64,000 nucleotides of DNA from Candidatus Vogelbacteria bacterium RIFOXYD1_FULL_51_18 (lineage in GTDB: Bacteria; Patescibacteriota; Minisyncoccia; Phycocordibacterales; UBA9988): the NCBI GenBank assembly GCA_001823095.1, contig MHTL01000012.1:1035-65034 (forward strand), read 5' to 3'. Under the pieces are notes generated by a model, which was given only the letters and a program-made list of their open reading frames with translations, did no database searches and was not told where the DNA came from. A program made the translations under genes and the position numbers. Positions 33,065 to 63,950 of this stretch are shown in pieces. Position 1 is the stretch's first letter; every line of letters begins with the position of its first letter.

Positions 33065-33094
33065 AGTACCATTGTACTCCTCTCCTGCTATAAT

Positions 33095-34610: not shown

Positions 34611-34654
34611 TTTTTAATCATATCACAAAACACCCTTAAACCCAACCAAACCCG

Positions 34655-34677: not shown

Positions 34678-34679
34678 AG

Positions 34680-35135: not shown

Positions 35136-35141
35136 ATACAG

Positions 35142-35540: not shown

Positions 35541-35589
35541 ACTCCCGCATCATACCACAAAAACACCCTCAAACCTCAACCAAACCCGA

Positions 35590-35612
35590 TGACTGGAGTC
35601 AGACTTCAGTCA
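35590..35612. repeat. 23-bp palindrome copy 8
   Basis: Sequence is TGACTGGAGTCAGACTTCAGTCA. Confidence 0.75.
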
Positions 35613-35703
35613 ATGTTCCACTCCTCTATCGTATCACAACCCCCCGCCATGTGGCGGGGGGTTGATCACAATCGTCAAAATAAGATCCTGCTGAAAGGCT
35701 TTA

Positions 35704-36207
35704 CTAAGCGTTATCGCAGACTACATCCGTACTACTGACACCTGTCACAATTTCTGTGGCCGCTGCAGCAGTACTCACACCAGCATAGCCAGTACTATCA
35801 ACACAGTAAGTAGTACCATCGTTGAGGACAACTGCTGCTCCCCATTTTGTTGGTGCAACGCCAACAGCGGTATCTTGACCACACTGAACAACGTTCGCCG
35901 CAGGTACTTGTGTTTGAACAGCTGTCTTTAAGGTCAACAAGCTACCAGAGACGGACGCTGCTGCAGCACACAAATTTACAGCATACGTACCAGAATCAGT
36001 AACACCAAGCTCTGCTTGTGCCCTCATAGATGACATCGAGGCTTTAGCTGACGCGTCCTTTCCCTTGTTTCTTGCTGAGCCTAAACTCGTCAAAACAATT
36101 CCTGAAAGAATACCGATGATGGCGATGACGACGAGGAGTTCAATGAGGGTGAAGCCCTTCGATCCGCCACAGCGGACCCTGGATAAACCTTTCTTATAAT
36201 TCTTCAT
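35704..36207 (-). CDS. pilA: Type IV major pilin
   Basis: N-terminus reads GGSKGFTLIELLVVIAIIGILSGIVLTSL, the class III signal / N-methyl-Phe motif. 167 aa. Confidence 0.8.
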   Translation of the reverse strand: MKNYKKGLSRVRCGGSKGFTLIELLVVIAIIGILSGIVLTSLGSARNKGKDASAKASMSSMRAQAELGVTDSGTYAVNLCAAAASVSGSLLTLKTAVQTQVPAANVVQCGQDTAVGVAPTKWGAAVVLNDGTTYCVDSTGYAGVSTAAAATEIVTGVSSTDVVCDNA

Positions 36208-36324: not shown

Positions 36325-37533
36325 CTATGAAATAGATCCGGCAATATTATAAATGGGCAGGAGGACTGCGGTGAGTAAGATGCCTACCCCGGCGCCGAGG
36401 ACGATAATCATTGCCGGCTCAATGAGGCCTACCAGCGTATCCACCTCATTCTCCACTTCCCGCTCGTAGAACTTCGCCATAGTGGAGAGCACGTAGCCGA
36501 ACTTGCCCGACTCCTCCCCCACCTTCATCATCTGCACAATAATCCCGGGTATCTCGGGGTAGACGGCAAGCGCTTGCGAGACGGGCATGCCCGCCTTCAC
36601 CTTAAGGCTCGCCTCTTTCAGAATGTTCTTATAGACCTCGCTGTCCACCACCTCGGCGGTAATCTCTAGCGCGCGGAGCATGGAGATGCCGCTCTCCACC
36701 ATCGTGGAAAGATTGTCCGAGATGCGCGAGAGGTAGAGCTTGCGGTAGAGGAGACCGAGGTAAGGCACCTGCAGTTTAAGCTCCGAGAGCGCCTGCTTGC
36801 CCACCGCCGAGATACCGTAGCGCCAGAGGAGCACTCCTCCTGCCGCAAGCACAAGGAGGAGGAAGATGCCATAATGGACGAGAAAGTCGCTTGTCCCGAT
36901 GATTAGCTTGGTATACCAGGGGATGGCCTGCTGTGTCTCTTCAATAATATCGGCAAGCTTGGGGATAACCAGCGTCATCATGAGCACCATCACTCCGATG
37001 AAAGAGGCAATCACAAATGCCGGATAGACCAAGGCATTCCTGGCCTTGCTCACCACCGCGTGCTGGCGCTCCAGGTAATTGGCGAGGTAGGTAAAGGCCT
37101 CCGAGAGTCGCCCCGTCTCCTCACCCGAGCGCACCATGGAGACATAGAACTCGGAGAAAATATCTGGATGCTTGGCGAGCGCCTGCGAGATTTGCGCGCC
37201 GCTCTTGATGTCATCAGTAATGTCTACAAGCTTTTTCTTGAGCAATCTGCTCCCCGCCTCGCTTGCCAGCAGTTGGAATGCCGAGAGCACGGGGACTTTT
37301 GCTTCAAAGAGCGTAGAAATCTGCCGCGAGAGGATGACGATGTCGCGCGTCTTGACGCGCTCAAAGATTTTGAGAATGTCTTCCGACCAGCTCGGCTTCT
37401 CGTCGGGCACAATGGAGAGCACGATAAAGTTGCGCTTCTGGAGCGAGCTGATGGCGGAATCAATGTTTGCGGTATCAATGGTGCCCTTTTGGTCGCCGCC
37501 GTCTTTCGTTGTAACGTGGTACCTAAAAATCAT
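36325..37533 (-). CDS. pilC: Type IV pilus inner-membrane platform protein PilC (GspF family)
   Basis: 402 aa with two T2SSF repeats and a 3-TM topology. Confidence 0.85.
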   Translation of the reverse strand: MIFRYHVTTKDGGDQKGTIDTANIDSAISSLQKRNFIVLSIVPDEKPSWSEDILKIFERVKTRDIVILSRQISTLFEAKVPVLSAFQLLASEAGSRLLKKKLVDITDDIKSGAQISQALAKHPDIFSEFYVSMVRSGEETGRLSEAFTYLANYLERQHAVVSKARNALVYPAFVIASFIGVMVLMMTLVIPKLADIIEETQQAIPWYTKLIIGTSDFLVHYGIFLLLVLAAGGVLLWRYGISAVGKQALSELKLQVPYLGLLYRKLYLSRISDNLSTMVESGISMLRALEITAEVVDSEVYKNILKEASLKVKAGMPVSQALAVYPEIPGIIVQMMKVGEESGKFGYVLSTMAKFYEREVENEVDTLVGLIEPAMIIVLGAGVGILLTAVLLPIYNIAGSIS

Positions 37534-46793: not shown

Positions 46794-47015
46794 TTACTTC
46801 AACAAGGTAATAAAATCTTCGGCAGAAAGTTGAGCGTCACGTAAAATTTTCCTTAACAGGCCAGTTGCAATTATCTTGTGCATCGGCACAGTGACCGGCT
46901 TACGCTTAATACAACTAAGGCGCACATGACTGCCACGCTGACGAACCATGGTATACCCCAATTTTGCCAGACAATTAACACATTCCTTACCAGAGACGAT
47001 CGGCAGCTTTGGCAT
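46794..47015 (-). CDS. hicA: HicA-family mRNA interferase toxin
   Basis: 73 aa with the YcfA/HicA pattern (...GYTMVRQRGSHVRL...). It lies directly downstream of hicB. Confidence 0.6.
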   Translation of the reverse strand: MPKLPIVSGKECVNCLAKLGYTMVRQRGSHVRLSCIKRKPVTVPMHKIIATGLLRKILRDAQLSAEDFITLLK

Positions 47016-47017
47016 AA

Positions 47018-47266
47018 CTAAACGCTAATGGTGTGGAGGCTCAACTCTTGAGGGTGATATCGATGCAGGACGGCTCGATTACTCTTCTCTTCCAGGCAGA
47101 GGGCAATTACCTCGCGAATATTCTTAAGCGCCTCATCGAGTGTTTTGCCGTGAGTATAACAGGCATCAAAAAGAGGGCATTCCACAACATAAAAACCATC
47201 CTCATCACGCTCAATGATGACAGGAATAGTTGGCCGCCCAGATGATCGAAGTACTGTTTTTTTCAT
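47018..47266 (-). CDS. hicB: HicB-family antitoxin (UPF0150)
   Basis: 82 aa with a HicB N-terminal RNase-H-like fold (IPVIIERDEDGFYVVECPLFDACYTHGKTLDEALKNIREVI). Confidence 0.6.
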   Translation of the reverse strand: MKKTVLRSSGRPTIPVIIERDEDGFYVVECPLFDACYTHGKTLDEALKNIREVIALCLEEKSNRAVLHRYHPQELSLHTISV

Positions 47267-47338: not shown

Positions 47339-47410
47339 TGGGCGTGCTAGGACTCGAACCTAGAACCAGCCGTGTATAAGACGGCTGCTCTACCATTGAG
47401 CTACACGCCC
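47339..47410 (-). tRNA. tRNA-Ile (anticodon TAT, reads AUA)
   Basis: Reverse complement reads GGGCGTGTAGCTCAATGGTAGAGCAGCCGTCTTATACACGGCTGGTTCTAGGTTCGAGTCCTAGCACGCCCA, with a 5-bp anticodon stem GCCGT/ACGGC and loop CTTATAC. Confidence 0.65.
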
Positions 47411-47418
47411 CTCCTCAA

Positions 47419-49362
<1,944 letters not shown>

Positions 49363-49396
49363 AGAGTATAGCGAAATAGGGAGAAAATGAAAGTTG

Positions 49397-49590
49397 TGGT
49401 GTTTGTTTGAAAAAGTCAGAACCCATTTTACGGAGAACCCTGAAAACTAATGCGGACTCGGCAGGGCGAAACATTTGTCTGGGGATATGGATTCGCCCTG
49501 CCTCGGCTTCCGTCCCGCCCGCAGGAGGGGTCTGGGGAGGAATGCGGGCGGGTTTCGGACTGGGGGTTTTCGGAAATTCGGCGGCTATCA
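49397..49590 (+). repeat. 194-bp perfect inverted repeat, left copy (att-arm-like)
   Basis: Identical in inverse orientation to 51637-51830. It contains GC-rich internal hairpins and begins with TGGTG. Confidence 0.85.
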
Positions 49591-49591
49591 A

Positions 49592-49921
49592 TTATTTTAA
49601 CCAAGATTTGACAATTTCCAAAACTTGGACAATTTGTGTTGCGGCAAGCGCAACGCCGACAACGGTTAGCCAAAAAATTCGCTTTTGTAATTTCTCGTTT
49701 TTACCGTCAAGATTTACGATAGTTTTTTCAAGACTCTGGACAGCGGGTTTCAATCTACGAGACATTTCCACATTTGATTGAATTGAAACCTTGTCGCCAT
49801 AATCGTATAAATGAGCGTTCGCCAATATTTCGTCTGGAAGTTTGGTAAAATCCGAATTTGGCGTAAGCTCGGTGTTATATTCCTTCTTTAGTCGTTCTTT
49901 GATTTGATCCTTTGTTTCCAT
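49592..49921 (-). CDS. Hypothetical small protein with C-terminal TM helix
   Basis: 109 aa with a coiled N-terminal part and a C-terminal hydrophobic helix. AT-rich. Confidence 0.35.
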   Translation of the reverse strand: METKDQIKERLKKEYNTELTPNSDFTKLPDEILANAHLYDYGDKVSIQSNVEMSRRLKPAVQSLEKTIVNLDGKNEKLQKRIFWLTVVGVALAATQIVQVLEIVKSWLK

Positions 49922-49956
49922 TATTTACCTGAGGGTGTTGGTTTTATTAAGAAAAA

Positions 49957-51336
49957 CTATTTAATGTCTTTGAGAAAAATTGAAGTCTTAAACACACCAC
50001 TATCTTTTGTTGTTGCGAATACAACATATCCACCAACAGATTCATCTTCAATCGTAAACAAAGATTCTATAGATGTTGGTAAATTACTCTCGAACTTTGT
50101 CCAGGTATGTGCGTTATCTATACTAACCAAGAGTAAATTTTGACCATACTCTTTACTACCTATAACAAATACCACATCTTCAAGTGCAGTTCTTTCCTTA
50201 ATATTAAATTCTTCTTTTTCTTCGTTGTCATAACAATCATAGGTTTTAATGTCGTTGTCATTATGTGAGTAGACAAAAATGTGGGTTGGAGAAACTCCCA
50301 AATCTTCTAAAGAGTTTTCTAAAATCCAATGACCTCCTCTATTTAGGCAGGTTTTGACAAGTAACTTGCTACTTAAACTAATATTCGCATATATATGTGG
50401 AATGCCTTTTTGTGAGTATGCAACTTCCGCGCCAGAATTAAGTGGATGAGGTCCAAATTTTTCTAAAATAGACTCGAGAAGATCATCTTTTTCGCAACCC
50501 ATAAAATCCTCCCAGCAAGAATAGATTGTTCTATCAGTATGAAGCCACGTCGGCCAAGTATTTTGTGTCAAGAGAGAAACAACAGATTCAGAATTGATAA
50601 CGCGAGCTTTCTCCCCGTTGGATAATGTTCTTTCTTGCAAAAAATCTATTTTCTTGGCTCTCACTATGTCGTATGTTATATCGTCATCTTCGATAGCTTT
50701 CCCCAAAAGCCTATTCGTCTCTTCTCGATTATTTTTATTAATTTCTTTTTGATCTTTATAAAGACTCTCGAAAAATGATTTGATATATGCTCGCGTTTCT
50801 TGCTGTGGCTCAGCAAAAAATCCGATGCCAGTTGATATAGAATAGATTATTGGATCTTTTGTAATGCCATAATCTGCTAAGTGAATTTTTTCATAACGAT
50901 TTTCCCTTGAATATGGTGTTAGGGCAATGTCCGCCATTCCTGTCCCCACGAGTATCCAATTATTCCCCCCATCTAAACTTTCAAACACGTCGCCTACACC
51001 CAATGCAAATATGGCTTTTGCATATGGAGCGTGGACTATTTTTCTAATCTCTGGTAATGGATTTGGTAAACCATTATTTATTGCAACCCAGCTTACCCCT
51101 TTGTCTATACTTTTAAAAATTCCCGTATCCGTTCCGGCATAAAGAATGGATTGATTGTTTACATCAGCAATAACAGTATTCACAGAAAGAGTGGTTAATC
51201 CAGTATTGGATTGTTCCCAAACTACGGTTTTATTAGTAGAAGTTTTTTGTGAAAATATAACAGCCAAAATTATCACCAACAAGACGGCTCCGATGATAAG
51301 ATGCTTTTTTGTAAATTTTATATTATTTTCAATCAT
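49957..51336 (-). CDS. Membrane-anchored protein with BNR/Asp-box repeats
   Basis: 459 aa with an N-terminal TM helix and SxDxGxxW boxes (SIDKGVSW, SLDGGNNW). The C-terminal half is unknown. Confidence 0.45.
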   Translation of the reverse strand: MIENNIKFTKKHLIIGAVLLVIILAVIFSQKTSTNKTVVWEQSNTGLTTLSVNTVIADVNNQSILYAGTDTGIFKSIDKGVSWVAINNGLPNPLPEIRKIVHAPYAKAIFALGVGDVFESLDGGNNWILVGTGMADIALTPYSRENRYEKIHLADYGITKDPIIYSISTGIGFFAEPQQETRAYIKSFFESLYKDQKEINKNNREETNRLLGKAIEDDDITYDIVRAKKIDFLQERTLSNGEKARVINSESVVSLLTQNTWPTWLHTDRTIYSCWEDFMGCEKDDLLESILEKFGPHPLNSGAEVAYSQKGIPHIYANISLSSKLLVKTCLNRGGHWILENSLEDLGVSPTHIFVYSHNDNDIKTYDCYDNEEKEEFNIKERTALEDVVFVIGSKEYGQNLLLVSIDNAHTWTKFESNLPTSIESLFTIEDESVGGYVVFATTKDSGVFKTSIFLKDIK

Positions 51337-51349
51337 ATTTTTATAAAAG

Positions 51350-51571
51350 TTATTTTATAAAATATCCAACCTCTTTTTTATAAAGTGCAGCAAACTTCCT
51401 TATCTCAACAATATCTAGCCTTTGTTCGCCCGCCTCGGACTTTGAAATATAAGATTGAGGACGCTTCAATTTCTTTGCGGCTTCAACTTGCGTAAAACCT
51501 GCCTCTAAGCGGGCATTCTTCAATTTTAACGCAAAATTCTGATATTCCTTTGTTCTTATTGAACTACCCAT
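51350..51571 (-). CDS. XRE-family helix-turn-helix transcriptional regulator
   Basis: 73 aa, LKNARLEAGFTQVEAAKKLKRPQSYISKSEAGEQRLDIVEI. Confidence 0.7.
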   Translation of the reverse strand: MGSSIRTKEYQNFALKLKNARLEAGFTQVEAAKKLKRPQSYISKSEAGEQRLDIVEIRKFAALYKKEVGYFIK

Positions 51572-51636
51572 ATATTAACAGTTTATATTCACAAAGGCAA
51601 TATTCAAAGTTAGAATAATGTGCTATGCTTAATTTA

Positions 51637-51830
51637 TGATAGCCGCCGAATTTCCGAAAACCCCCAGTCCGAAACCCGCCCGCATTCCTCCCCAGACCCC
51701 TCCTGCGGGCGGGACGGAAGCCGAGGCAGGGCGAATCCATATCCCCAGACAAATGTTTCGCCCTGCCGAGTCCGCATTAGTTTTCAGGGTTCTCCGTAAA
51801 ATGGGTTCTGACTTTTTCAAACAAACACCA
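51637..51830 (-). repeat. 194-bp perfect inverted repeat, right copy
   Basis: Reverse complement equals 49397-49590. Confidence 0.85.
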
Positions 51831-51983
51831 GAATTAAAGTCAGGTCATTTTTAGAAATTTTTTCTTTGGCGTTCGCCAAAGAAAGCCAATGGTTTTGGGC
51901 AATTCCGAACGCTCCGCGTTTTTTTAAGGTGAGGTTCAAAAATTCAAAAGCCGAAGATTTTTGGAGGGAGATTTTTTTGGAGG
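51826..51983 (-). repeat. Inverted duplicate of the recombinase gene 3' end (attP-arm-like)
   Basis: Reverse complement matches 63409-63557 except for a ~10-bp indel. It joins the 194-bp repeat at the same CTGGTG where the recombinase gene meets tmRNA. Confidence 0.7.
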
Positions 51984-52098
51984 GGAGGTCGAAGACGAAT
52001 ACATAACACTTGCCCCACCCTTCCCGTGCGCGTGTTAAAAACTTTTGCCGACTTGGAGATCGGCAAACTCCCTAAAAACAAGCAAGCAACTGATATAT

Positions 52099-55000
52099 CT
52101 AAACTATACTTTCCCTCAATATGTATCCGACAACAGAACCTTTTGCTATTAAGAAATCTAGTATCACTAACACATCTTGTTTTAACTTTTTGGTCTCTCT
52201 TATTTTTGTACGATTTTTATAAATATACTTTCTGATAAGATTTTCTATATAGAAAAGCGTGTTTACCTCAAGTTTGGCAGTAAATAAGTTTTTATTTTTT
52301 ACTAACATACCTGATATCCACTGTACGCCATCCTCCATATAGGTACTCCCGATATCATTTAGTAGTTTTGAAATTGCATAGAGGGTTGAGGCACATTGTC
52401 CAATATTCTCCGAAATTTCTTTAAAAAATCTTTTATCACTATCTTTGAATGTATGCCATTCGGTCGCAGATTCTTTCCACGGATTTTGAGCAAAAAGATA
52501 ACTTTTAATAATTTTATCAACGTACCAATATCCATCTCCCTTTTTACAAAGCTCAATTATTTTCTCGTTAAATATTCTCCAAACTTCCCAAAATATCTCA
52601 TAAGAGTTTAAATAATCCTCAGCAGATATAAATTCCTCAAATAAATCAGCGATTGCCTCTGAACTATTAAATTTATCAAGAAATGGTTGAAGGTATTCTT
52701 GAATTTCTTCTTTTGAAGAACTCAAGACGAGATAGGCTAGTTTTTCTAAAAAACCATGCTTTGTCGCATAATCAACTCTGTCCTCTCTGTCATTTGAAAT
52801 TAATTTTTCAGCAAAAGCAAAGATGGTTTTTTTGACTACTATTTTATGCTCCTCATTTTTAGTTTTTAGAGGAATCAATTGGAAAGCTGTTTTTAATGTG
52901 TATAAATCTATCTGCTCAATATCTCCAACGTCACCAATTAACAATTGATTGTTTTGGATTTTCTCTAAATACACTTTATTTTCTTCCAAGAATCTTTTCA
53001 TTGCATCACTATCTTGTATATCGTACTGATTCTTTATATATTTTTCTTGGCGTATTTTTTCTCTTAACTCATCAAATTTTGGTTTCAAATATAAGTAGCC
53101 AAACAATAATGACTGAGCATCATCAAAATTGGTACTCCATAGCTTGTGAATAGCCGTGATTGAAAATACGTTAAAACTTGTACCAGCCATATCAATGGGA
53201 TAATAGTTAAACAAATTAAACAACAAAATTTCTTTTATCTTTCCTTTTTCTTTCGGAAATTTCTCAAATAGAACTGGCAATACCGAAATTGCCGATTGCG
53301 CACCATCAGTTACCTGATATTGATAGTTAGGGCCGGAAGACGAAGACACGGCTTCTAAAACAATATCGGCGCAAAATTCGCCTTCCTCTTTTGAAAGCTT
53401 ATCAAGAAAATCTCTAATCATGACAGAGCAGACTTCTGAGGGGATAGAATGATTTAAAAGGTAAAAACTTTCTTCTTCCGAGTGCTGAAGTTTTAATGAT
53501 TCAGGTTTTTTAACAGTTTTTAATTTTGCAATGATCTCTTCAACTTCCTTAAGCGGAAGCTTGGGATCGTCCTCATATTTATTATACTGCTTGTATTTTT
53601 CGTCATTTCTGAGCCTGAAATTTGCCCATAATTTTAATTGCAGGTATTTAGATGATTCGGAATTCTTTTCTAAAGATTTCTCGCTGTATTCTTTTAATTT
53701 CGGATCAATTTGAGGATTAAAATTAATCAAATATCCGTCATCAGTTTTTTCTGAGACAAGATTCATTTTCCTTCTATCCATTCTTGCCAAGTAAAGTCTC
53801 CACGTTTTGTCTGATTCGGTTTCTACCGATGGATCGGGTAACTTTTTGTAATAATCGTCCAATATTTCCCACAGAATCTTTTGTCTGTTCTTTGATTCCT
53901 CCTCATCAACTTCTTCACTTCTAAATAATTGGTAATTTAGAAATACATTCTCTAAAGACCATTTTCTATGCTTGTCATCACAGGTTTTTAACCTCTCCTC
54001 TTCGTGAATTTCATTTTTTGAATTGATACCAAAACTTGCTCTTAAAGACAGAAGTGAACTTTTTTGACCTTGGTCTAAAACTAACCTGCTAGTGTCATAA
54101 AGAAAAAAGTCTTTTGTTCTAAAAAGAATTTTAGCCACATTAAAAGTCTTTTCGGGATAAGCCGACACAACACTTGCAACCACGCCTGAGATAGAAGCTG
54201 ATTTTGAATTTCTAATTAGATACAAAAGCCAGCTTTCCAAAGTCTTTGAATCAGTAACCTTTCCAATTTCAAGGAAATACCTTTCTAAGGCCATGTGCAT
54301 TGATTCTAGGACGTGAGGAGCAACCTGCGTACCTCTGAACGCGCACCAAAGCCGACAGCTTATGTATTGTTTTATTGGCTTATCTTTTTCAATAAAGACC
54401 TCAACTTCTTCAACTTCATATTTAGCAAATTCAGATTTGGCAAAGTATTCTACTGCTTTATTTGTAAATTTTAATATGAAATCTATTGTTTCTTGGAGCG
54501 AAGATTGGAGCAGCCAATAAATTGGAGTCTGATATGAGCTAGCCGGAAAATAATCTAAATGATCATCTTCCATGTCAAAATGTTCCGCAATGTCTATCCC
54601 AGAACGACCGGAGAAGTGATCTTCTTTTGGCGTGAACGACCAAAATAAATCTGCTAATTCCAAAACATATTTAGGAAAAGTCTTGGCAATAGTGACCCCT
54701 TCAAATTTTGTCAAAATAATTTCAGATAAATCAACATAAGGGTCTCTGTGTCTTTTCCACTTATTCTTTACAATTTCTTTAAAAATTCCCTCTAGTTGGC
54801 CTTTAATCTCTAGGGAGCTATAAAGAATTGTCTGCAAGAGCTTATCTTTAGTACCATCGTCAGAAATATGGACGTCTTCTTTAATAGTCCATTGGTAGTA
54901 TTTCAGTGCCATTAAGCCAGAATATTTTGTCGTTTCTCCTTCCTTAAATTTACTAGTCCAATCGTGGATTATCGGCAAGATAAAATGGATATTTCTAATA

Positions 55001-56907
55001 CCAACTTGATCAAAGTTTTCAAAAACAAATTTAATAAGACTTTCCCATCCTTGTCCTTTCGGCCTCGTCAAAATATATTTGAGGGAAAAGATATTTAAAT
55101 TTTTAACTCCTAGCTGTTTAAAAAAGTCATCATCAACTTCCTTGCAGGCAATTCTTAAAAGGAAAAACATTTTGTGCAACAAGCTTTCTTCGTATTTATA
55201 GTTAACGGTTAAAGATTGCGCGACTTTGGATGAATTGTCATACTTGACTACTTTTTCTGGGATACTTAGTAATTCGTTTTTAAAGAATTCAAAGAATACA
55301 GAGGAGAAATCGGAAAGTAAAACAGAAACCAATATTTCATCTTTCCAAAAAGATTCTACCCCATTATTCTTTACAGCCTCTTCAATAAAGGTTTTTATCT
55401 CTTCGTTCTGTAGCAACAACTTTTCCGATACCCATTTTCTAAAAGCACGGCGCAAAGGCAAAGAACTGCCCAGATTTTGGAAAAAAGTTTTAGTGTCGGT
55501 CTTTTTCCCAAATTCAATTTGAATATTTTTTTCCAACGCCCACTCCTCATAGATATCATGAGTAATGAAATAGCCATGCGGCGATTCATATCCTAAAATC
55601 CCGTCCTTCTTTAACTCATTATCCAGAATTTCTGATTCACAATCTGGATTAATAAAGAACTGTCCATCGGTTGCCCTCTGCAATGCCATCTTTAAAAAGC
55701 ATTGTTCTCTTGCAGGTTTAGATTTAATAATTATTTTATTCCATAATTTGTCTTTAAAATCCGTATAGTTTATTTGCTCACCCTCCTTGTAAATCTTCAA
55801 ATACTCGTTTAAGTAAAATGGATTTCTAACAAGGTCTAGTAATTTTTCGTCACTCGGAAGAGAAAACTTATATGTCTCAGAAAGTTTACTTAGCTCCTTT
55901 GCTTCCAAATTTTGGATATTGATATTTAAAGGGGCAATTCCATAAATCTCAAAAAACTGATAGTTTAAATCTTCTAGATAATTATCTCTTGTAGTAAAAA
56001 TAACTTTCCAATTTTCCTTAACCACAATAGATAAAAACTCCTTAAAGGGGTCGGTGTTTTTCAAATCCAACAATTTTTCTGCGGAATCAATTGCAATAAT
56101 TTTATCGCCATCATTTTTATGCCCATCTAAAAAATCCTGAAAACTATACCCTGTAAAGAATTCACTTAGATTTCTCAGCTCAAATTCGGTTGCTTTGAAA
56201 ATATAGAAAGGTATCTTGCCTTTCGTTTCTTCATAGAAGTCTTTAATGACCGCTGTCTTTCCAACTCCACCAACACCACTCAAGATCAATACCTTATCTA
56301 GGCTAGTTTTTATTTTCTCCAAATTACCACTCCTGTCTATCTTTATATTTTGACCATTAAAGGCGATGGTCGTTTGTATCTCGCTTAATATATTCTCCGA
56401 ATGATCCTGTTGATTTTTTATTAGGTCAAATATACTTTTGTCTAAACTAAAAAAATGTTTAGCTATTATTTCGTTATCAACCGATACAAAAGTAGATTCA
56501 AAAAAACTTGCAGTTCTCCATTCTAACTTAATGCCAAGCGTATTCGCCTTACCCTCTACGTCTTTCTTCCCTTGAGGTTCTTTGCCTTTATTTTGTACCC
56601 ACTCCTCGTTAGTATATAAAATTAGCTTTGTAATATTTGTGTAATCTCTCTTTGCCTTTTCAAGGACACCAATCAGCTCAGTCGTATGGTTTGACAATGA
56701 TGTACTGTAAAACTTAGCTTGCCAACCTATCACTTCTTCTTTTTCTTGAACAGTATCTGTCTCTATGGCAGATTGATTTTTATAACGAAAAATTCCAACA
56801 ATTTTATTGAACTCTCTGCAAAATAATGAGTAACAAAACCACTCAAAATTGTTTTGAGGATTTTCGCTAAATTTCGCCTTAAAGATGTTCCAACTTGGCT
56901 TAATCAT
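52099..56907 (-). CDS. Giant STAND/NB-ARC-like P-loop NTPase (1602 aa) with N-terminal ~200-aa domain and long C-terminal helical repeat region; candidate Avs-like antiphage protein
   Basis: Walker A VLILSGVGGVGKTAV (aa ~216-229) and a Walker B-like KIIAIDSAE motif, then >1200 aa of alpha-helical repeat-like sequence. The N-terminus has a D...QxK patch (AIETD...VIGWQAKF). It sits 74 nt downstream of Type III res on the same strand, and a 14-codon uORF overlaps the start (ATGA). Confidence 0.55.
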   Translation of the reverse strand: MIKPSWNIFKAKFSENPQNNFEWFCYSLFCREFNKIVGIFRYKNQSAIETDTVQEKEEVIGWQAKFYSTSLSNHTTELIGVLEKAKRDYTNITKLILYTNEEWVQNKGKEPQGKKDVEGKANTLGIKLEWRTASFFESTFVSVDNEIIAKHFFSLDKSIFDLIKNQQDHSENILSEIQTTIAFNGQNIKIDRSGNLEKIKTSLDKVLILSGVGGVGKTAVIKDFYEETKGKIPFYIFKATEFELRNLSEFFTGYSFQDFLDGHKNDGDKIIAIDSAEKLLDLKNTDPFKEFLSIVVKENWKVIFTTRDNYLEDLNYQFFEIYGIAPLNINIQNLEAKELSKLSETYKFSLPSDEKLLDLVRNPFYLNEYLKIYKEGEQINYTDFKDKLWNKIIIKSKPAREQCFLKMALQRATDGQFFINPDCESEILDNELKKDGILGYESPHGYFITHDIYEEWALEKNIQIEFGKKTDTKTFFQNLGSSLPLRRAFRKWVSEKLLLQNEEIKTFIEEAVKNNGVESFWKDEILVSVLLSDFSSVFFEFFKNELLSIPEKVVKYDNSSKVAQSLTVNYKYEESLLHKMFFLLRIACKEVDDDFFKQLGVKNLNIFSLKYILTRPKGQGWESLIKFVFENFDQVGIRNIHFILPIIHDWTSKFKEGETTKYSGLMALKYYQWTIKEDVHISDDGTKDKLLQTILYSSLEIKGQLEGIFKEIVKNKWKRHRDPYVDLSEIILTKFEGVTIAKTFPKYVLELADLFWSFTPKEDHFSGRSGIDIAEHFDMEDDHLDYFPASSYQTPIYWLLQSSLQETIDFILKFTNKAVEYFAKSEFAKYEVEEVEVFIEKDKPIKQYISCRLWCAFRGTQVAPHVLESMHMALERYFLEIGKVTDSKTLESWLLYLIRNSKSASISGVVASVVSAYPEKTFNVAKILFRTKDFFLYDTSRLVLDQGQKSSLLSLRASFGINSKNEIHEEERLKTCDDKHRKWSLENVFLNYQLFRSEEVDEEESKNRQKILWEILDDYYKKLPDPSVETESDKTWRLYLARMDRRKMNLVSEKTDDGYLINFNPQIDPKLKEYSEKSLEKNSESSKYLQLKLWANFRLRNDEKYKQYNKYEDDPKLPLKEVEEIIAKLKTVKKPESLKLQHSEEESFYLLNHSIPSEVCSVMIRDFLDKLSKEEGEFCADIVLEAVSSSSGPNYQYQVTDGAQSAISVLPVLFEKFPKEKGKIKEILLFNLFNYYPIDMAGTSFNVFSITAIHKLWSTNFDDAQSLLFGYLYLKPKFDELREKIRQEKYIKNQYDIQDSDAMKRFLEENKVYLEKIQNNQLLIGDVGDIEQIDLYTLKTAFQLIPLKTKNEEHKIVVKKTIFAFAEKLISNDREDRVDYATKHGFLEKLAYLVLSSSKEEIQEYLQPFLDKFNSSEAIADLFEEFISAEDYLNSYEIFWEVWRIFNEKIIELCKKGDGYWYVDKIIKSYLFAQNPWKESATEWHTFKDSDKRFFKEISENIGQCASTLYAISKLLNDIGSTYMEDGVQWISGMLVKNKNLFTAKLEVNTLFYIENLIRKYIYKNRTKIRETKKLKQDVLVILDFLIAKGSVVGYILRESIV

Positions 56908-56981
56908 TGTAATTTTCTTAGGTTTTGGGAGAGTTCCATTTTTTCCATTCTGAACCTCTTTAATACGAATTATTCATAAAT

Positions 56982-59675
56982 TTATTTCTTATCAAATACC
57001 CTCACGACCTCATCAAAGTTTTTGAGTTTATCTTTTTCCCATTCTTCTTGTTTTATATAAAGTGCTTTATAGACAACCCGATTTTGGCGATCGTTCACAT
57101 CTACACACCACTTTTGCAGTCTTTCAAATTTCAACTTATCATTTTCTTCTTCTCGTCCTTTTGTTTCAATAATATATACAGTTTTTTCGTCTTTTTTAAC
57201 AAAGAAGTCTGGATAGTAGGTGGCGATAAACCCTTCCGAATTTTTATACTCAATTCTAAGCGCGCTCGCTTCCTTGTTTTGAAAGTTTTTTGCGAAAGAA
57301 ATTACATCATCACAATTTTCAAGAAAATCCGAAAATACCAATTCAAAATCACTATCCCCAACAATCTTATTGAAAACTGATTTTTTAGGTATTAAATATG
57401 ATTTGTCATTAACAACAAAAGGTCTTGCTTCGCTGATTTTTATATAGTTCTTTATTTCCGTATCGCCCTTGTCCTCTACAGTGAGATCATTGATAGCTTT
57501 TTTGAAAGAATCTTTAATGAGCCTTATATATTCAACTTCTGATAAGTTTCTCAAGGTATTGAGGTCTGACAAATTCACAGGACTATCAAACATATTATTT
57601 TGCAAAAACTCTCTTACTTTGCCGAATAAAATATCGTAGCAACCAAACAATCGTAGCTCTCGCATTATTGCTTGCGCAAAAAACCCGACAACGCTTTGAT
57701 AATCTGGCTCTATGTCTCCAGAAAGTATTGTTGTATGGTGAGTTTTTTCACCAACAACATCTTTAAAAACAATTTCTCGTTTTTCTTCCTCCGAAAATAT
57801 TTTAACCTTTACTTTTTTATTTCCAAACTTAGACACATCCAACTCGGCAAGATTTTTGTATTCTCGCTGAATTCTAGGGGACATTACCGGAATCTCAATA
57901 TCAAGTTTCTCAATATCTTTATTCGGATTATCTTTATCAACCTCAATAACCATCGGAGCTATTGGCTTAGCTCCTATTCCCATGGCTTTCTTCTCAAGAA
58001 TAACGCCCTCGCCTTTGATTGACTCAACAAAGTCCATAAAAGCGGGAGTTCCAACAACACTCACATACTCCTCAACATCATCTCTGCCAAAAAACATTCT
58101 GCGGAGTCCTCGCCCGAGAGTTTGTTCAGGAAGAATTTTTGAATCGGCGGCGTATGGTCGTAGCCCAACGATTGTCGTTACATTTTTTACATCCCAACCC
58201 TCTTTGAGCATCATTACAGAAATAATCACCTTGAAAGGACTTTCCCAACTATCAATTTCGTTTGCCTGTTTTCTAAGCAAATCCAATTCTTCTCTGCTTT
58301 TGCCAGATACACTTTCAGAAATTTCACCACTTTTATTTGTGTGAATGGTCAAAACCGCGCCTTTCAGTTCCTTAAAACTTGTTTCAATATAACCTGCCAC
58401 CTCATCACAGTTCTTTGTATCGTCTGTCATAATAAAAAGAATAGATTTCTTGCCCATCGGTTTTAACGCCTCGTATGTTTTTTGCCATTCTTCAATACCA
58501 AGATTTATATAATCTCTGTATTTTTCGCTAAATAGCGTGCTTTGATTTTCTTTTAACTTTCCTCGGCTCGCCGCGTCTGGCACAACCGGATTTTTTACCA
58601 CTCTTTGATGGATTGCTTCAACAAGCGGATAATCCGAAATTGTTTGCACAAAAATAGAGCCGTCATTCTTTTTTGGCGTAGCTGTCAAATCAATTTGCAA
58701 GGATAGTTTCGTTCCTTTTTGTTTTAGGCGATTATCTATGTCCGTAATAGATTTAACCCAAGCTGATTTGTCATCGTGCAAGTGATGTGCTTCGTCATTG
58801 ATTACAATAAGTTCGTCAATATCCCTCACAATCATTCCCAGATCAACAGTAGAATCGCTTGTTTTCGTAACTGGCTTATCACCCAAGAAATATGCAGAAG
58901 TATCCTCGTCTTCTATGCTTGAATCTTTTATATCACCCTCGAAAACTCTGTGGATATTAGTCAAAAATATATTTCCAGTATCAGAAACATTACGCAAATC
59001 ATCTTGCAAGTGCAAAGTCATTTGAAAATCATCTTGCCAGTTTTGCCCTTGGTATCCATTCTCCGGCAGAACAGGGTCGCTAAAAAATATCTTCAATCCC
59101 TCAAAATCATGTTTTATCCTTTCAAAAACGATGACATTCGGGGTTATTAAAAGAAAATTCTTTGCCAAATTAGAATCTTCCTCATATTTTTTATGAAAAT
59201 ACGCCCATGCGACAATCAAACTCATTACCTTTGTTTTACCTGCGCCTGTCGCCATTTTTATTACAAAACGAAGCCACTCCTCGGTAAACATTTGTGGGCT
59301 TAATACGCCGGTAGAATTGTAGCGAATGAGGTCGTATTTATCTTTTACTTTTGCTACTTCATAAAGCCAAATGACTGTTTCTAGTGCCTCTCTCTGTGCG
59401 AAATAGTATTTGAAATGAGAAGATACTCCTTGCTGGTCATACAAAATATGTTCTTCCTTAAACCACCAGTTCAAAAGTGATTTTGAAGTATCGCTCGCTC
59501 CATCATAATTTTTATCTCGCCATTCTTTTACTTTTTCTCGTAAACCAGCAACAAGAGGAGGTAAGAGTTTTTGAATAGCTCCCTTTTCTCTCAAATCTTC
59601 GTCAGCAGGAAACCACCGAATGTTCGGGTCAAGTATTGCGTATGGGTCTTTGGGAAAATCTTTATGGAGTGCCAT
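56982..59675 (-). CDS. res: Type III restriction enzyme Res subunit (DEAD/DEAH helicase + endonuclease)
   Basis: Walker A MATGAGKTKV and DEAH box (VINDEAHHL). 897 aa. The upstream mod stop lies 1 nt from the ATG. Confidence 0.8.
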   Translation of the reverse strand: MALHKDFPKDPYAILDPNIRWFPADEDLREKGAIQKLLPPLVAGLREKVKEWRDKNYDGASDTSKSLLNWWFKEEHILYDQQGVSSHFKYYFAQREALETVIWLYEVAKVKDKYDLIRYNSTGVLSPQMFTEEWLRFVIKMATGAGKTKVMSLIVAWAYFHKKYEEDSNLAKNFLLITPNVIVFERIKHDFEGLKIFFSDPVLPENGYQGQNWQDDFQMTLHLQDDLRNVSDTGNIFLTNIHRVFEGDIKDSSIEDEDTSAYFLGDKPVTKTSDSTVDLGMIVRDIDELIVINDEAHHLHDDKSAWVKSITDIDNRLKQKGTKLSLQIDLTATPKKNDGSIFVQTISDYPLVEAIHQRVVKNPVVPDAASRGKLKENQSTLFSEKYRDYINLGIEEWQKTYEALKPMGKKSILFIMTDDTKNCDEVAGYIETSFKELKGAVLTIHTNKSGEISESVSGKSREELDLLRKQANEIDSWESPFKVIISVMMLKEGWDVKNVTTIVGLRPYAADSKILPEQTLGRGLRRMFFGRDDVEEYVSVVGTPAFMDFVESIKGEGVILEKKAMGIGAKPIAPMVIEVDKDNPNKDIEKLDIEIPVMSPRIQREYKNLAELDVSKFGNKKVKVKIFSEEEKREIVFKDVVGEKTHHTTILSGDIEPDYQSVVGFFAQAIMRELRLFGCYDILFGKVREFLQNNMFDSPVNLSDLNTLRNLSEVEYIRLIKDSFKKAINDLTVEDKGDTEIKNYIKISEARPFVVNDKSYLIPKKSVFNKIVGDSDFELVFSDFLENCDDVISFAKNFQNKEASALRIEYKNSEGFIATYYPDFFVKKDEKTVYIIETKGREEENDKLKFERLQKWCVDVNDRQNRVVYKALYIKQEEWEKDKLKNFDEVVRVFDKK

Positions 59676-59676
59676 G

Positions 59677-61773
59677 TTATATATTTACTTCAACTACTTT
59701 CGTCGTATCATTTCCGAAAATATCCACAACCTTTACGGCGATTTTGTGCTTACCTTTTGTCGCCACCTTTGGAGAAGTAACGAGGTCAAGATTTCTGTTC
59801 TTTTTTGTGCGGAAACTCTGCCATTCGTTGTCAAAAATATAGTCGCCAGTCCAAATTTCTTTTTCTTTGCCGTCTTCCATTATTTTTATGATTTCCTTTC
59901 TGCTCGCAAAATCAAAATCTACCGCCCAATAGTCAATCCAGTCGCTCCATTTTTTAGTCAAAATCTCCTTGGATATTTCTTCCGTCTTTTTATCTTTTGA
60001 AATTTTTACCACTTGGCCATCTTCCACCACAACTTTAGATCCGCCCGGGCGCAACGCCTCGGCTATCTCACCAGAATCATCTTGATTATAAAAAACAGAA
60101 AAATCAGTAAGCTCTATTGATATTTCTTTATCACTTCCTCGTCCTTTGATAATCGGCTTCGCCTCAATAAACGCAACATCATAAAACTTCACTTGTCCTT
60201 TTTCTACCGCTTTTTTGTCAAAAACTTCTCGTGGAATTATTCTGAAAGCGATATCAATCCCTTGATCTTTGTATTGTGAAAAATCCAGCCCCATTTCGTA
60301 ATCAAAGCCAAGTACATCAATTTTAGTTATTCCTTTTTCTTTGCATTCCTTCACAATATCTTGCACGAGTTTTGAGGAAACGGGTGTATTGATAGGTCCT
60401 ACCGCTACAAGGCGATCTCTTTTCTTGCCGATAACATTCACAAAAGATTCTATCGGCTCTGCTTTGTATGCGGAAAGTATAAGTTTTACAAATTCCTTTT
60501 CTTTCCTTTCGGCTTGTTTTGATTTTTCCTCTGCTCGCAAATCATCATTTGTCGCTAGGAAATTTTCTCTTTCATATCTCCCAACATTCAGAATCTCAAA
60601 AGCTCGAAAATTTTTACTTTCCTTTTTCAGTTCTCTTTGTATTCCAATTAGTCGTTTACGAGATGTGTGTATGCCGAATTTACCCAAATCAGAACCAATC
60701 CACTTTCTACCAAGTTTTTCAGCAACAGCGAGAGTCGTACCAGCACCGCAAAAGAAATCTGCTACAAGATCACCCTCATTGGTGGATGCACTTATGATTC
60801 TCTCCAGTAGTGCTTCGGGCTTCTGTGTCGCGTAGTCGGTGTTTTGAGTTTTATCGGCAGGTTGTAAACAAGCTATCTTCCATACATCATCAACTCTTCT
60901 TACATCTCTCATTTGATACTGCACATTACCACTCTCATCTCTAGCATTTATTGCTTTTCCTTCAAAATATTTTCTTTTTAATTGCTTAACGGGTTGGTCT
61001 CTCTTTTCTTCTTGTGGATTGAAAGTATAATTTGAATCTTTATTTTTTACATAAAACAATATTCTGTCGTGTGCGGAGGAATATTTTCTAGTACCACTCG
61101 CCATTTTATTATAGTAATACCAAGATATATCACCTAGGAAATTATCTTTTCCAAAAATCTCATCTAAAATACATCTTATATAAGAATTTGTTTTCCAGTC
61201 GCAGTGCACATAAATACTTCCGTCTTCAGCGAGTAACGAATACATAAGTTTTAGTCGCTCATAAAGCATCGCATTAAAACTATCCACCCCTTTACCCCAT
61301 GTATCACGAAAAGCGATCTCCTCTATGACGGAAGGTTTCTTTTTAAACTCATCTTCTCCTATTTTTATATCAATAGAAAAATCTGCGCCTACATCAAACG
61401 GCGGGTCAATATAAATCAATTTCAAACCGCCTTGCGCTTCTATTTCTTTGCGAAGTGGTCCATTTTTGAGAGAGGAGAGAATCAGTTTATTGTCTCCCCA
61501 AATCAATTTATTCGTCCATCCGGTTATTTGTCGTCCTGTTGTATCAAAAAGAGAATTTTGATTGCCGAATTTTGCATCACTTCTTGGCTCGTCTATTTGC
61601 TCAATAACTTGAAAAGGCAAGACAACATTCGTTACCTCATTTGTCTTTCCATTCCAAAGAAGCTCAACCTCTCTGTCATCATCAAAGAGCAAGAAACGAT
61701 ATTTTTCCGGAAGCGGTTTTCCCGCTTCCAAGTATTTCACAACATCTCTTTTTTCATTATCAGTTAATTTCAT
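59677..61773 (-). CDS. mod: Type III Mod DNA methyltransferase (beta-class N6A/N4C MTase)
   Basis: Motif IV IYIDPPFDVG precedes motif I DFFCGAGTTLAVA. Confidence 0.8.
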   Translation of the reverse strand: MKLTDNEKRDVVKYLEAGKPLPEKYRFLLFDDDREVELLWNGKTNEVTNVVLPFQVIEQIDEPRSDAKFGNQNSLFDTTGRQITGWTNKLIWGDNKLILSSLKNGPLRKEIEAQGGLKLIYIDPPFDVGADFSIDIKIGEDEFKKKPSVIEEIAFRDTWGKGVDSFNAMLYERLKLMYSLLAEDGSIYVHCDWKTNSYIRCILDEIFGKDNFLGDISWYYYNKMASGTRKYSSAHDRILFYVKNKDSNYTFNPQEEKRDQPVKQLKRKYFEGKAINARDESGNVQYQMRDVRRVDDVWKIACLQPADKTQNTDYATQKPEALLERIISASTNEGDLVADFFCGAGTTLAVAEKLGRKWIGSDLGKFGIHTSRKRLIGIQRELKKESKNFRAFEILNVGRYERENFLATNDDLRAEEKSKQAERKEKEFVKLILSAYKAEPIESFVNVIGKKRDRLVAVGPINTPVSSKLVQDIVKECKEKGITKIDVLGFDYEMGLDFSQYKDQGIDIAFRIIPREVFDKKAVEKGQVKFYDVAFIEAKPIIKGRGSDKEISIELTDFSVFYNQDDSGEIAEALRPGGSKVVVEDGQVVKISKDKKTEEISKEILTKKWSDWIDYWAVDFDFASRKEIIKIMEDGKEKEIWTGDYIFDNEWQSFRTKKNRNLDLVTSPKVATKGKHKIAVKVVDIFGNDTTKVVEVNI

Positions 61774-61777
61774 AAAT

Positions 61778-61984
61778 TTATTTGATTAAGTCTTCAATCG
61801 GAACGGCTAGTGCTTTTGCGAGACGCTCAATGTTTTTCAGAGCCATATTCCGCACACCCCGTTCAATACCGCTTATATAAGTCGAGTGAACACCTAAAAC
61901 TTTGGCGAGATCGGCTTGCGACATCTGTTTTTTGAGTCTAATTTCTTTAACCTTTTTTCCAAACTTGGCTGATATATCTGTCAT
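61778..61984 (-). CDS. Controller (C) protein, XRE-family HTH, upstream of mod
   Basis: 68 aa, MTDISAKFGKKVKEIRLKKQMSQADLAKVLGVHSTYISGIERGVRNMALKNIERLAKALAVPIEDLIK. The track ORF 61778..62392 is an N-terminal over-extension. Confidence 0.6.
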   Translation of the reverse strand: MTDISAKFGKKVKEIRLKKQMSQADLAKVLGVHSTYISGIERGVRNMALKNIERLAKALAVPIEDLIK

Positions 61985-62008
61985 AAATTCATATTTTACC
62001 CCTTGCGT

Positions 62009-62058
62009 GCATTCTATCAGATATTGTAATATAGTTCTATGTAGAATTATCATTCTAC
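62009..62058. promoter_or_regulatory. Candidate C-box operators / divergent promoter region
   Basis: Inverted repeats TTCTA-TG-TAGAA (62035-62046) and GTAGAAT-TATC-ATTCTAC (62041-62058), in an AT-rich spacer between the C gene and the recombinase gene. Confidence 0.35.
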
Positions 62059-62062
62059 CCAT

Positions 62063-63628
62063 ATGTCTAAATACTTTCTTTACGCAAGAAAATCCACCGA
62101 TGTCGAGGACAAGCAAGTCCTCTCTATTGAAGCCCAACTCGCCGAACTGCGGGCACTCGCCAAGCACGAGAACCTTTCCATATCGGACGAGTTTATAGAA
62201 AAGCGATCGGCAAAAATGCCCGGTCGCCCGATCTTCAACGATATGCTCCGCCGCATACAGACGGGCGAAGCACAAGGCATTATTTGTTGGAAGATTGACC
62301 GCTTGGCTCGCAATCCCGTGGACGGCGGACAAATTCAATGGCTTCTGCAACAAGGAGTTATCGCACATATTCAAACCCACGATAGAAGCCATTATCCAAA
62401 CGACAATGTTTTGATGATGTCCGTCGAGTTAGGCATGGCTAACGAATATATCCGCCAACTAAGTGCGAACACCGCAAGAGGATTACGGCAGAAAGCACGG
62501 CAGGGAGACTTTCCCGGCCTTGCTCCGCTTGGCTACATCAACAATTCCAACATCAAGAAAATCGCCGTTCATCGTAAAAATGCGAAGCTCATTAAAAAGA
62601 TGTTTGAACTTTACGCAACGGGAAGTGTCCGCCTTGAAAATCTTTCCGTTGTTTTGGAACAGGCGGGTATCCAATCCAAAAATAAAAATCGTGTTCATAT
62701 TTCACGAATATCAAATATTCTCACCAATCCGATTTATTACGGACACTTCCGCCACGCAGGGGAAATATACGAGGGCAAGCACGAGCCGATAATCACGAAA
62801 GACCTCTTTGATAGGGCTAACGCCGTCTTGCGAGGCCGAGGCCGCACCCCCGCTAAAAAGACCGACCCGAGGCCGTTTTGTGGCCTCCTGTCGTGTGGGA
62901 GTTGCGGTATGGGAATAACGGGAGAGATAAAGATAAAGAGGCAGAAGAACGGCAACACCCACCGCTATATTTATTACCATTGCACGAAGAAGTCCAAGAC
63001 GAAGAAATGTCCCGAGCCGTGTATTCGGCAAGAGGAATTAGACCGCCAGTTGTCGGTCATGCTTTCCGAATACGCTATGCCGAAAGAATGGGTAGCCCCA
63101 CTTTCCGTCATGCTCGACAAGGAGGAACACGACACAAAAAATTCCGCGTCGGAGGCTGTTCAAGAAATGCGAGGGCAAGTCAGCGACTTTTCCCGCAACC
63201 TCGCCAGACTTACCGATATATATGTATCGCAAGACATAGAGCGAGATGACTACCTTGAGAGGCGTCGTTCGCTCATGTCCGACAAGAAGTCCGTCGAGGA
63301 GCAAATAGCCCGTCTTGAACATACCCCCTCCGCGTGGATCGAACCGACCCGAGACTGGATTAAAGACGCTTCCATACTGGAAGAAACAGCAAAAACAGAC
63401 GACCTCCCCTCCAAAAAAATCTCCCTCCAAAAAATCTTCGGCTCGAACCTCACCTTAAAAAAACGCGGAGCGTTCGGAATTGCCCAAAACCATTGGCTTT
63501 CTTTGGCGAACGCCAAAGAAAAAATTTCTAAAAATGACCTGACTTTAATTCTGGTGGAGATGGCGGGAATCGAACCCGCGTGCAATGAGAGGCGCATGCA
63601 TGCTTCTACGGAGCCTAGACTGCTTTAA
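62063..63628 (+). CDS. Large serine recombinase (resolvase catalytic domain + recombinase domain + Zn ribbon)
   Basis: YARKSTDVEDKQVLSIEAQ (catalytic Ser), ...RLARN..., a CGLLSCGSCG...C Zn-ribbon, and a coiled-coil. The last ~77 nt overlap the tmRNA 3' end. Confidence 0.85.
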   Translation: MSKYFLYARKSTDVEDKQVLSIEAQLAELRALAKHENLSISDEFIEKRSAKMPGRPIFNDMLRRIQTGEAQGIICWKIDRLARNPVDGGQIQWLLQQGVIAHIQTHDRSHYPNDNVLMMSVELGMANEYIRQLSANTARGLRQKARQGDFPGLAPLGYINNSNIKKIAVHRKNAKLIKKMFELYATGSVRLENLSVVLEQAGIQSKNKNRVHISRISNILTNPIYYGHFRHAGEIYEGKHEPIITKDLFDRANAVLRGRGRTPAKKTDPRPFCGLLSCGSCGMGITGEIKIKRQKNGNTHRYIYYHCTKKSKTKKCPEPCIRQEELDRQLSVMLSEYAMPKEWVAPLSVMLDKEEHDTKNSASEAVQEMRGQVSDFSRNLARLTDIYVSQDIERDDYLERRRSLMSDKKSVEEQIARLEHTPSAWIEPTRDWIKDASILEETAKTDDLPSKKISLQKIFGSNLTLKKRGAFGIAQNHWLSLANAKEKISKNDLTLILVEMAGIEPACNERRMHASTEPRLL

Positions 63629-63950
63629 CTACTTGCCGGTAGTATTCGGTGCCGCGCGTCAAGAGCAGACGAAATCGCACAGCATCCTAGATTGTTTGTT
63701 TAGGTATCGTAGTCAATCATTCTACGGTACCGATCTTTGAGATATGACACCCTGCGTTTTAAGCAAAGATACTGTAAAACGCGGGCGGCATTACGCTAAC
63801 GCGAATGCGGGCGTGAAGTATGGCGATGCCACACTGCCGCCGTTTTCAGATGAGTTGGCACTTATCTGTTCTGCAATTATAGTAACGGCCTATTGCAGGA
63901 GGCCGGCGCGCACATACAAGGCGTACCCACTGTCTATGCCGATCATCCCC
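63552..63950 (-). ncRNA. ssrA: tmRNA (ssrA)
   Basis: Reverse complement starts GGGGATGATCGGCATAGACAGTGGG and ends GCACGCGGGTTCGATTCCCGCCATCTCCACCA. The 3' end matches 24 of 28 nt of E. coli ssrA (GCGGGTTCAACTCCCGCCAGCTCCACCA). The acceptor has a G3:U70 wobble. A candidate tag ORF ends AFALA-TAA (stop at plus 63791-63793). Confidence 0.75.

Follow-up and report, generated by a model that had tools for sequence, protein, structure and literature searches.

A canonical Avs4 protein beside a Type III restriction-modification system on an inverted-repeat element at ssrA in a Candidatus Vogelbacteria genome

Does a gene for a giant NTPase next to a restriction-modification (R-M) system represent a new kind of antiviral defence? 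The question is raised by a 64,000-nucleotide (nt) stretch of contig MHTL01000012.1 from Candidatus Vogelbacteria bacterium RIFOXYD1_FULL_51_18, hereafter the window, in which a gene for a protein of 1602 amino acids (aa) follows the mod and res genes of a Type III R-M system. A preliminary description made from the letters of the sequence had proposed that these genes constitute a candidate novel Avs-like module. Judged by its sequence, the 1602-aa protein is a canonical Avs4, a defence system made of a single protein; it belongs to a known family and is no new kind of defence system. The locus as a whole is very probably best explained as a canonical Avs4 beside a mechanistically independent Type III R-M system, both of them cargo of a mobile element and probably co-expressed.

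The identity of the protein rests on matches along its whole length. The PADLOC model for Avs4 scored 2280 bits, with residues 1-1602 on positions 1-1570 of a model of 1570, and NCBIfam NF041815, an equivalog model named 'AVAST type 4 anti-phage nuclease Avs4' with a cutoff of 1500 bits, scored 2103 bits (residues 6-1602 on model positions 2-1579 of 1579). Comparison with the E. coli Avs4-portal structure 8DGF_A gave 1863 bits in a single collinear stretch (1-1601 on 1-1586), and the tripartite order of an N-terminal effector, a STAND (signal transduction ATPase with numerous domains) NTPase and a C-terminal sensor matches this solved protein end to end. Pfam yielded matches to AAA_14 and AAA below threshold only and none to Mrr_cat, and alone would leave the protein seeming novel, whereas the defence-specific and NCBIfam models settle its identity. 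A database search found at least 1713 homologues among 8000 candidates scored, several of which NCBI already names Avs4, including proteins from Paceibacterota and Levybacteria metagenome-assembled genomes (MAGs). GenBank already contains exactly these Avs4, Res and Mod proteins (KKT80761-3, OHA60551-3 and HCQ92006/7) from Candidatus Vogelbacteria and Parcubacteria-group MAGs, in line with the earlier suspicion of a genome of the candidate phyla radiation (CPR), and 86 blocks of the sequence collection list the identical Avs4 protein. The hidden Markov model searches with Avs families that the preliminary description had called for thus bear out its antiviral STAND NTPase with a nuclease-type effector and a long helical sensor; its claim of novelty fails, the protein being an equivalog-level Avs4 with relatives that are already annotated as such.

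The catalytic motifs were assessed in an alignment of the window Avs4 and 25 homologues (26 sequences). The open reading frame (ORF) and its GVGGVGKT motif were recovered where they had been reported (Table 1). The Walker B-like motif, placed earlier about 75 aa further on, is present and nearly invariant, but the spacing is 56-63 aa. Three residues of the N-terminal domain, E22, E49 and K65, do not vary at all, and conservation of Q63 reaches at least 90%. Of the D...QxK patch noted previously, Q63 and K65 stand; D51 is not conserved (the consensus is N), and among the acidic residues conservation is seen at E22 and E49. Structure prediction of aa 1-200, likewise suggested beforehand, came out in favour of a nuclease. 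An AlphaFold (AF2) model with a predicted local distance difference test score (pLDDT) of 72.6 matched the N-terminus of 8dgf_A in Foldseek at E=3e-20, with 56% identity over 199 aligned columns, and the next matches were weak ones to restriction-endonuclease folds, including EcoT38I, EcoO109I and BamHI (E=0.016-0.1). The model fits the Mrr-like PD-(D/E)xK effector that has been described in Avs4 proteins. Among the loci fetched for comparison, to which L-numbers refer, proteins of 1450-1630 aa from Clostridium spp. (L019-L022) match the window Avs4 over the N-terminal ~238 aa only, with 50% identity, and appear to have the same nuclease effector domain joined to a different NTPase/sensor.

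Phage portal proteins activate Avs4, a STAND protein of three parts, which assembles into tetramers and so switches on its N-terminal nuclease (PMC11897194, PMC12642450), and portal proteins alone activate it in co-expression assays (PMC12642450). By homology, the C-terminal helical sensor of the window protein would bind the portal protein when a tailed phage infects the cell, the STAND NTPase would drive assembly of an Avs4 tetramer, and the tetramer would activate the N-terminal Mrr-like PD-(D/E)xK nuclease, such that DNA would be degraded and the infection aborted. We infer portal sensing, tetramerisation and nuclease activity from the homologues, and the sequence holds nothing that argues against the mechanism of the E. 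coli protein. The R-M layer would cut incoming unmethylated DNA, and the Avs4 layer would respond late, to a structural protein, with suicide; the two layers would be mechanistically independent and probably co-expressed from a promoter of the element.

This element is 11.7 kb in size (51826-63556), is flanked by inverted repeats and is located at the 3' end of ssrA, the transfer-messenger RNA (tmRNA) gene. The GC content is 33% in avs4 and 37% in res and mod as compared to about 54% in the host, which, along with a large serine recombinase gene, agrees with the AT-rich, horizontally acquired island proposed previously. The recombinase gene is divergent from a gene for a helix-turn-helix (HTH) protein, and its ORF crosses the right repeat arm and then extends 77 nt into ssrA, so the last ~75 residues depend on the junction; in one rearranged copy (L031) the recombinase ORF, 517 aa in length, runs out into another flank. 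The arms are ~160 nt in length, with a 10-nt indel separating perfect blocks of 112 and 34 nt. The right arm contains the palindrome TTTCTTTGGCG-AA-CGCCAAAGAAA at 63498-63521, and the centre of this 24-nt palindrome is non-palindromic, with TT in one arm and AA in the other. An assembly artefact as the source of the inverted repeats was ruled out, since independent assemblies contain the arms too, as does a ~94% identical lineage (L042). When searched for in all fetched loci they were found in the Vogelbacteria lineage only and in none of the more distant Avs4 islands.

Two lines of evidence point to a mobile unit with exchangeable content. Many independent assemblies contain the unit of Avs4, R-M and recombinase genes at 99.9% identity, and in two loci, L031 (1-1200, 12380-13140) and L033, the unit is joined to ssrA by its avs4 end rather than its recombinase end. 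The ssrA-side host flank in these loci is 99.8% identical to the window and the other end of the unit adjoins a tRNA cluster. The opposite junction with ssrA indicates that the unit was recently rearranged or moved, which could have been by inversion or relocation. The other line of evidence comes from a scan of metagenomes for the junction between ssrA and the arm, meant to reveal an empty ssrA site, which gave a single contig (L042) that carries a cargo-swapped element instead. Its backbone is ~94% identical and includes both arms, the terminator, the HTH gene, the serine recombinase and ssrA, while positions 491-6683, corresponding to 52075-61777 in the window, hold a different cargo in place of mod-res-avs4. 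The cargo encodes a 1521-aa superfamily 1 (SF1) helicase (AAA_11/AAA_12, Zn-ribbon) with PADLOC PDC-S37/MkoC/Hhe-like matches together with a DUF2779 protein of 529 aa, and the two may be a helicase-nuclease defence pair that has yet to be characterised. Homology between the window and this contig ends at the HTH stop codon (61778) and just past the terminator (~52075), which identifies mod-res-avs4 as one 9.7-kb cargo block between a promoter and regulator on one side and a terminator on the other, all belonging to the backbone. Since the same HTH gene (~94% identical) precedes a cargo without R-M genes, the supposed 'C protein' is a backbone gene and not specific to the R-M system, and a 'C-controlled Type III R-M' system, as described earlier, is not supported as a unit.

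Table 1. Positions of features of the avs4 locus in the 64,000-nt window.
Feature	Position	Strand	Basis or remark
Left inverted-repeat arm	51826-51991	.	112 nt + 34 nt at 100%, complementary to 63400-63556
Intrinsic-terminator-like hairpin and T run, 32 nt past avs4 stop	52044-52067	-	conserved backbone part
avs4, AVAST type 4 protein, 1602 aa, full-length	52099-56907	-	PADLOC, NCBIfam and PDB 8DGF_A matches
avs4 domains, approximate	nuclease aa 1-~160; STAND NTPase ~200-~480; helical sensor ~480-1602		by homology
Walker B-type hhhhD, IIAIDSAE, aa 270-277 (D274)	56077-56100	-	I-D-S-x-E nearly invariant
Walker A GVGGVGKT, aa 211-218	56254-56277	-	G/G/V/G/K/T nearly invariant
Putative nuclease active-site patch E49...Q63-A-K65, N-terminal Mrr-like PD-(D/E)xK domain	56713-56763	-	conservation and AF2 model
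Upstream ORF (uORF) MEKMELSQNLRKLQ and stop, 14 codons	56904-56948	-	TGA overlaps avs4 ATG (ATGA)
res, Type III-like superfamily 2 (SF2) helicase, weak C-terminal endonuclease match, 897 aa	56982-59675	-	Pfam, PADLOC
mod, Type III N6/N4 DNA methyltransferase, 698 aa	59677-61773	-	Pfam N6_N4_Mtase 7e-47; PADLOC MTase_III 1.1e-112
HTH regulator, XRE/C-protein-like, 68 aa, first operon gene	61778-61984	-	HTH_3 2.5e-14; PADLOC Control_protein 6.4e-20
Perfect palindrome GTAGAAT-GATA-ATTCTAC (7-4-7), candidate C-box-like operator	62041-62058	.	read from sequence, 78-nt divergent intergenic region
Large serine recombinase, 521 aa	62063-63628	+	Pfam Resolvase PF00239, Recombinase PF07508, Zn_ribbon_recom PF13408
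Right inverted-repeat arm	63400-63556	.	abuts/overlaps CCA end of ssrA
ssrA (tmRNA gene), insertion landmark	63552-63950	-	ARAGORN; Rfam RF00023 87.5 bits

Whether avs4 is expressed together with the R-M genes was addressed from the layout of the cargo block. Res matches Pfam ResIII (5e-17) and PADLOC REase_III (8.6e-21), its C-terminal match to Pfam RE_endonuc (18.6 bits) is under the cutoff of 23.4, and that to NCBIfam BPTD_3080 is partial and below cutoff. The mod gene is directly upstream, with 1 nt between its stop codon and the res ATG, and is separated by 4 nt from the HTH gene, which we start at the ATG at 61984 because the listed ORF of 204 aa is over-extended; the best PADLOC match of the 68-aa product is Control_protein. 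The palindrome in the divergent intergenic region is followed by a weaker repeat, and a -10-like TAAAAT is located just upstream of the HTH ATG (61993-61998; promoter-like match 62020..61993), an arrangement from which we infer an autoregulated, near-leaderless HTH gene. As stated in the preliminary description, avs4 follows res on the same strand after 74 nt. This gap, with a GC content of 28%, contains no terminator-like site, no promoter-like match and no stable hairpin, its folding being no better than that of shuffled sequence (z=0.8). Promoter-like matches across the region were at chance, 49 versus 39 +/- 6 in shuffles, and include weak sigma-70-like matches at 57141-57199 within res. 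From the HTH gene to the far end of the element, the hairpin past avs4 is the only terminator-like site that closes the operon. The operon reading is strengthened by the fact that the cargo-swap boundaries are the HTH stop codon and this terminator, and mod, res and avs4 are probably co-transcribed, much as had been suggested.

The additional proposal of translational coupling through a 14-codon uORF fared less well. The uORF exists and overlaps the avs4 start by ATGA, and AGAGG is found 7 nt upstream of its ATG, which carries little weight because most genes in the window are without Shine-Dalgarno sequences. The conserved ATGA at the Met-Ile start of avs4 necessarily terminates every ORF in this frame, and about 3% of shuffled gaps contained a uORF of 14 codons or more with its stop at this TGA. 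A counterpart was looked for in 17 related loci and none was seen outside near-identical copies, which leaves the uORF unsupported as a conserved coupling device.

We also examined the neighbourhoods of avs4 in related genomes. The close relatives, with 70-87% identity and mostly from Patescibacteria, were sorted into about ten distinct contexts including the window. An R-M system is located directly upstream on the same strand in four of these: the Type III mod-res pair of the window with its 74-nt gap, a different Type III system in which res overlaps avs4 (L024), an HTH-Dam-DpnII-methyltransferase set with a 5-nt gap (L001/L002/L025) and a Dam-AlwI-methyltransferase set (L006). Three other contexts have a LexA-like S24 repressor gene (LexA_DNA_bind and Peptidase_S24) on the avs4 strand 12-19 nt upstream (L005 9347-9988; L038 6347-6982; L040 2422-2802), which suggests damage-responsive or other dedicated control of Avs4 there, and neither type of gene is found upstream in the last three (L003, L039 and L041; 70-76% identity). 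A large serine recombinase is at most 10 kb away in about 7 of the ~10 contexts. The close spacing suggests that in this clade the gene before avs4 often drives its expression, through read-through or coupling. Among nine relatives at a greater distance (50-64% identity), none had an upstream R-M system, and their neighbours include HipA, AbiH, SIR2-TIR and integrase genes. Some of the related copies are broken: avs4 is split into three ORFs in L015 (9974-14823) and into two in L057 (10769-15582), and intact genes for Res and the recombinase could not be called in L029/L044, from one MAG assembly. These may reflect loss of function or sequencing error.

Could the R-M system and the STAND protein nevertheless be one functionally integrated module, in which, for example, DNA ends made by Res or the status of Mod/Res feed Avs4 activation, or in which Avs4 guards the R-M system against anti-restriction? 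The shared strand, the short gap and the missing terminator would fit, avs4 is downstream in 23 of the 23 contigs read that carry the exact Res, and the difference between four of ten close and none of nine distant contexts with an upstream R-M system corresponds to a hypergeometric p of about 0.05, uncorrected for relatedness. However, the upstream modules are mutually unrelated, with two different Type III systems, one DpnII-type and one AlwI-type, so that no specific protein partner is conserved, and Avs4 relatives at 70-82% identity lack an R-M system or are preceded by the LexA-like gene. The protein moreover has the complete sensor-NTPase-effector architecture of Avs4, for which portal proteins alone were sufficient for activation in the literature (PMC12642450). 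R-M systems dominate the defence content of Patescibacteria and adjacency to Avs4 is therefore to be expected. A composite system is thus very unlikely, and modular packaging in defence islands accounts better for the unconserved partner, the complete Avs4 and the abundance of R-M systems. The linkage looks like defence-island modularity rather than a composite mechanism, and the arrangement once described as not a standard architecture is a standard one for such islands.

It is also conceivable that the two systems are mere neighbours, with avs4 transcribed from a promoter of its own in the 3' end of res or in the gap and the linkage reflecting the clustering of defence genes. Relatives with long upstream intergenic regions (L003, L039 and L041) clearly use promoters of their own, a gap with 28% GC could hide an unrecognised promoter, and the weak sigma-70-like matches in res are candidates. 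Yet the gap has no promoter-like match, those in the region do not exceed the shuffle expectation, res lacks a terminator while one backbone promoter region and one backbone terminator delimit the cargo, and avs4 in relatives overlaps the upstream gene or starts 5 nt after it. Independent transcription is accordingly unlikely, although it deserves serious consideration. Even less credible, to the point of being nearly negligible, is that the avs4 copy is a non-functional passenger heading for loss. Related genes are indeed split by frameshifts or stops, in three pieces in L015 and as 380 + 1196 aa in L057, but the window copy is an intact ORF of 1602 aa with all catalytic motifs and the identical protein recurs throughout the 86 blocks. 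Three points weigh against a canonical Avs4 co-expressed with an independent R-M system. Portal recognition is extrapolated from homologues that are about 56-60% identical; promoters in Patescibacteria are poorly defined, and there may be an internal promoter in the AT-rich 3' end of res or in the gap; and the R-M genes directly upstream in four of the ten contexts among close relatives may point to an association beyond chance.

A broader scenario, to which we attach only a small chance, is that Avs4 in Patescibacteria is recurrently the terminal gene in R-M operons on small serine-recombinase elements with inverted repeats that serve as plug-in slots, in which a conserved HTH-gated promoter and a shared terminator bracket interchangeable cargo. 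The gate would time the expression of toxic Res and Avs4 after transfer, R-M and Avs4 would form one co-regulated two-layer unit, and the element might invert or relocate between the 3' ends of tRNA and tmRNA genes.

Additional features were observed elsewhere in the window. Adjacent to the element is a second pair of inverted repeats, GC-rich, 197 nt in length and 99% identical (49394-49590 and 51637-51833), that encloses an AT-rich cassette with genes for an HTH protein (73 aa) and a 459-aa BNR/Ycf48-like protein and a 109-aa ORF. The same 197-nt arms in L034 (8495-10902) enclose another cassette, with an HTH gene (67 aa) and ORFs of 311 and 274 aa. No PADLOC or Rfam matches were obtained for the cassettes within these repeats, and Rfam at a permissive threshold gave nothing credible across 49300-52100, including the GC-rich arms. 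A second stretch of lower GC content (41-47%) at 29700-36000 contains three pilin-like genes with N-terminal methylation motifs, a prepilin peptidase (A24) and an IS200-like Y1 transposase, and together with a T2SS-F gene at 36325-37533 is a type IV pilus cluster. A tRNA-Ile gene with a UAU anticodon (47339-47410) is located just downstream of ftsH, and two small ORFs next to it (46794-47266) are a HicA/HicB toxin-antitoxin pair by synteny with L028.

The main value of these results is negative, in that what had been proposed as a candidate novel system belongs to a well-characterised family that current NCBI and PADLOC models recognise. They document Avs4, a costly abortive-infection protein of 1600 aa, as mobile cargo in ultra-small CPR bacteria with genomes of about 1 Mb, and an element at ssrA whose backbone holds R-M and Avs4 genes in one lineage and a helicase/nuclease pair in a second. 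Such a record could be useful for cataloguing defence hotspots in Patescibacteria and opens no new mechanism. Some interest remains in the ssrA-linked element with its cargo slot and in the repeated placement of avs4 in operons of Patescibacteria, both of which are variations on established themes.

The closest of these themes is the E. coli Avs4 (8DGF), or AVAST type 4, reportedly due to Gao et al. 2020/2022. The two proteins are of the same length class, 1602 aa here versus 1587 aa, and share the N-terminal nuclease domain and the Walker A/B and QxK motifs. They differ at roughly 40-45% of residues, in an insertion of ~23 aa near aa 551-575 and a deletion of ~19 aa near aa 107-125 in the window protein, in the host, which here is a patescibacterium, and in gene context, as the window avs4 closes an operon-like block with R-M genes whereas the E. 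coli gene is stand-alone. The R-M part resembles classical systems controlled by a C protein, such as C.PvuII and C.AhdI, in that a gene for a small HTH_3 protein comes first in the operon, with a perfect palindrome upstream and a -10-like element near the ATG. Classical systems couple C with the endonuclease gene, whereas here it precedes mod, and a ~94% identical HTH gene also precedes a cargo without R-M genes. The element itself is comparable to defence hotspots on other mobile elements, including P2/P4 prophages, the SXT integrative and conjugative element, SCC-type serine-recombinase islands and integron cassettes. Defence systems that co-localise have also been described (PMC13463889). 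Like the hotspots, the element combines a conserved backbone of recombinase, regulator, terminator and flanking repeats with interchangeable defence cargo, and its insertion site, ssrA, is a classic island target, but its repeats of ~160 nt are inverted rather than direct, it is found in both orientations relative to ssrA, and its host belongs to the CPR.

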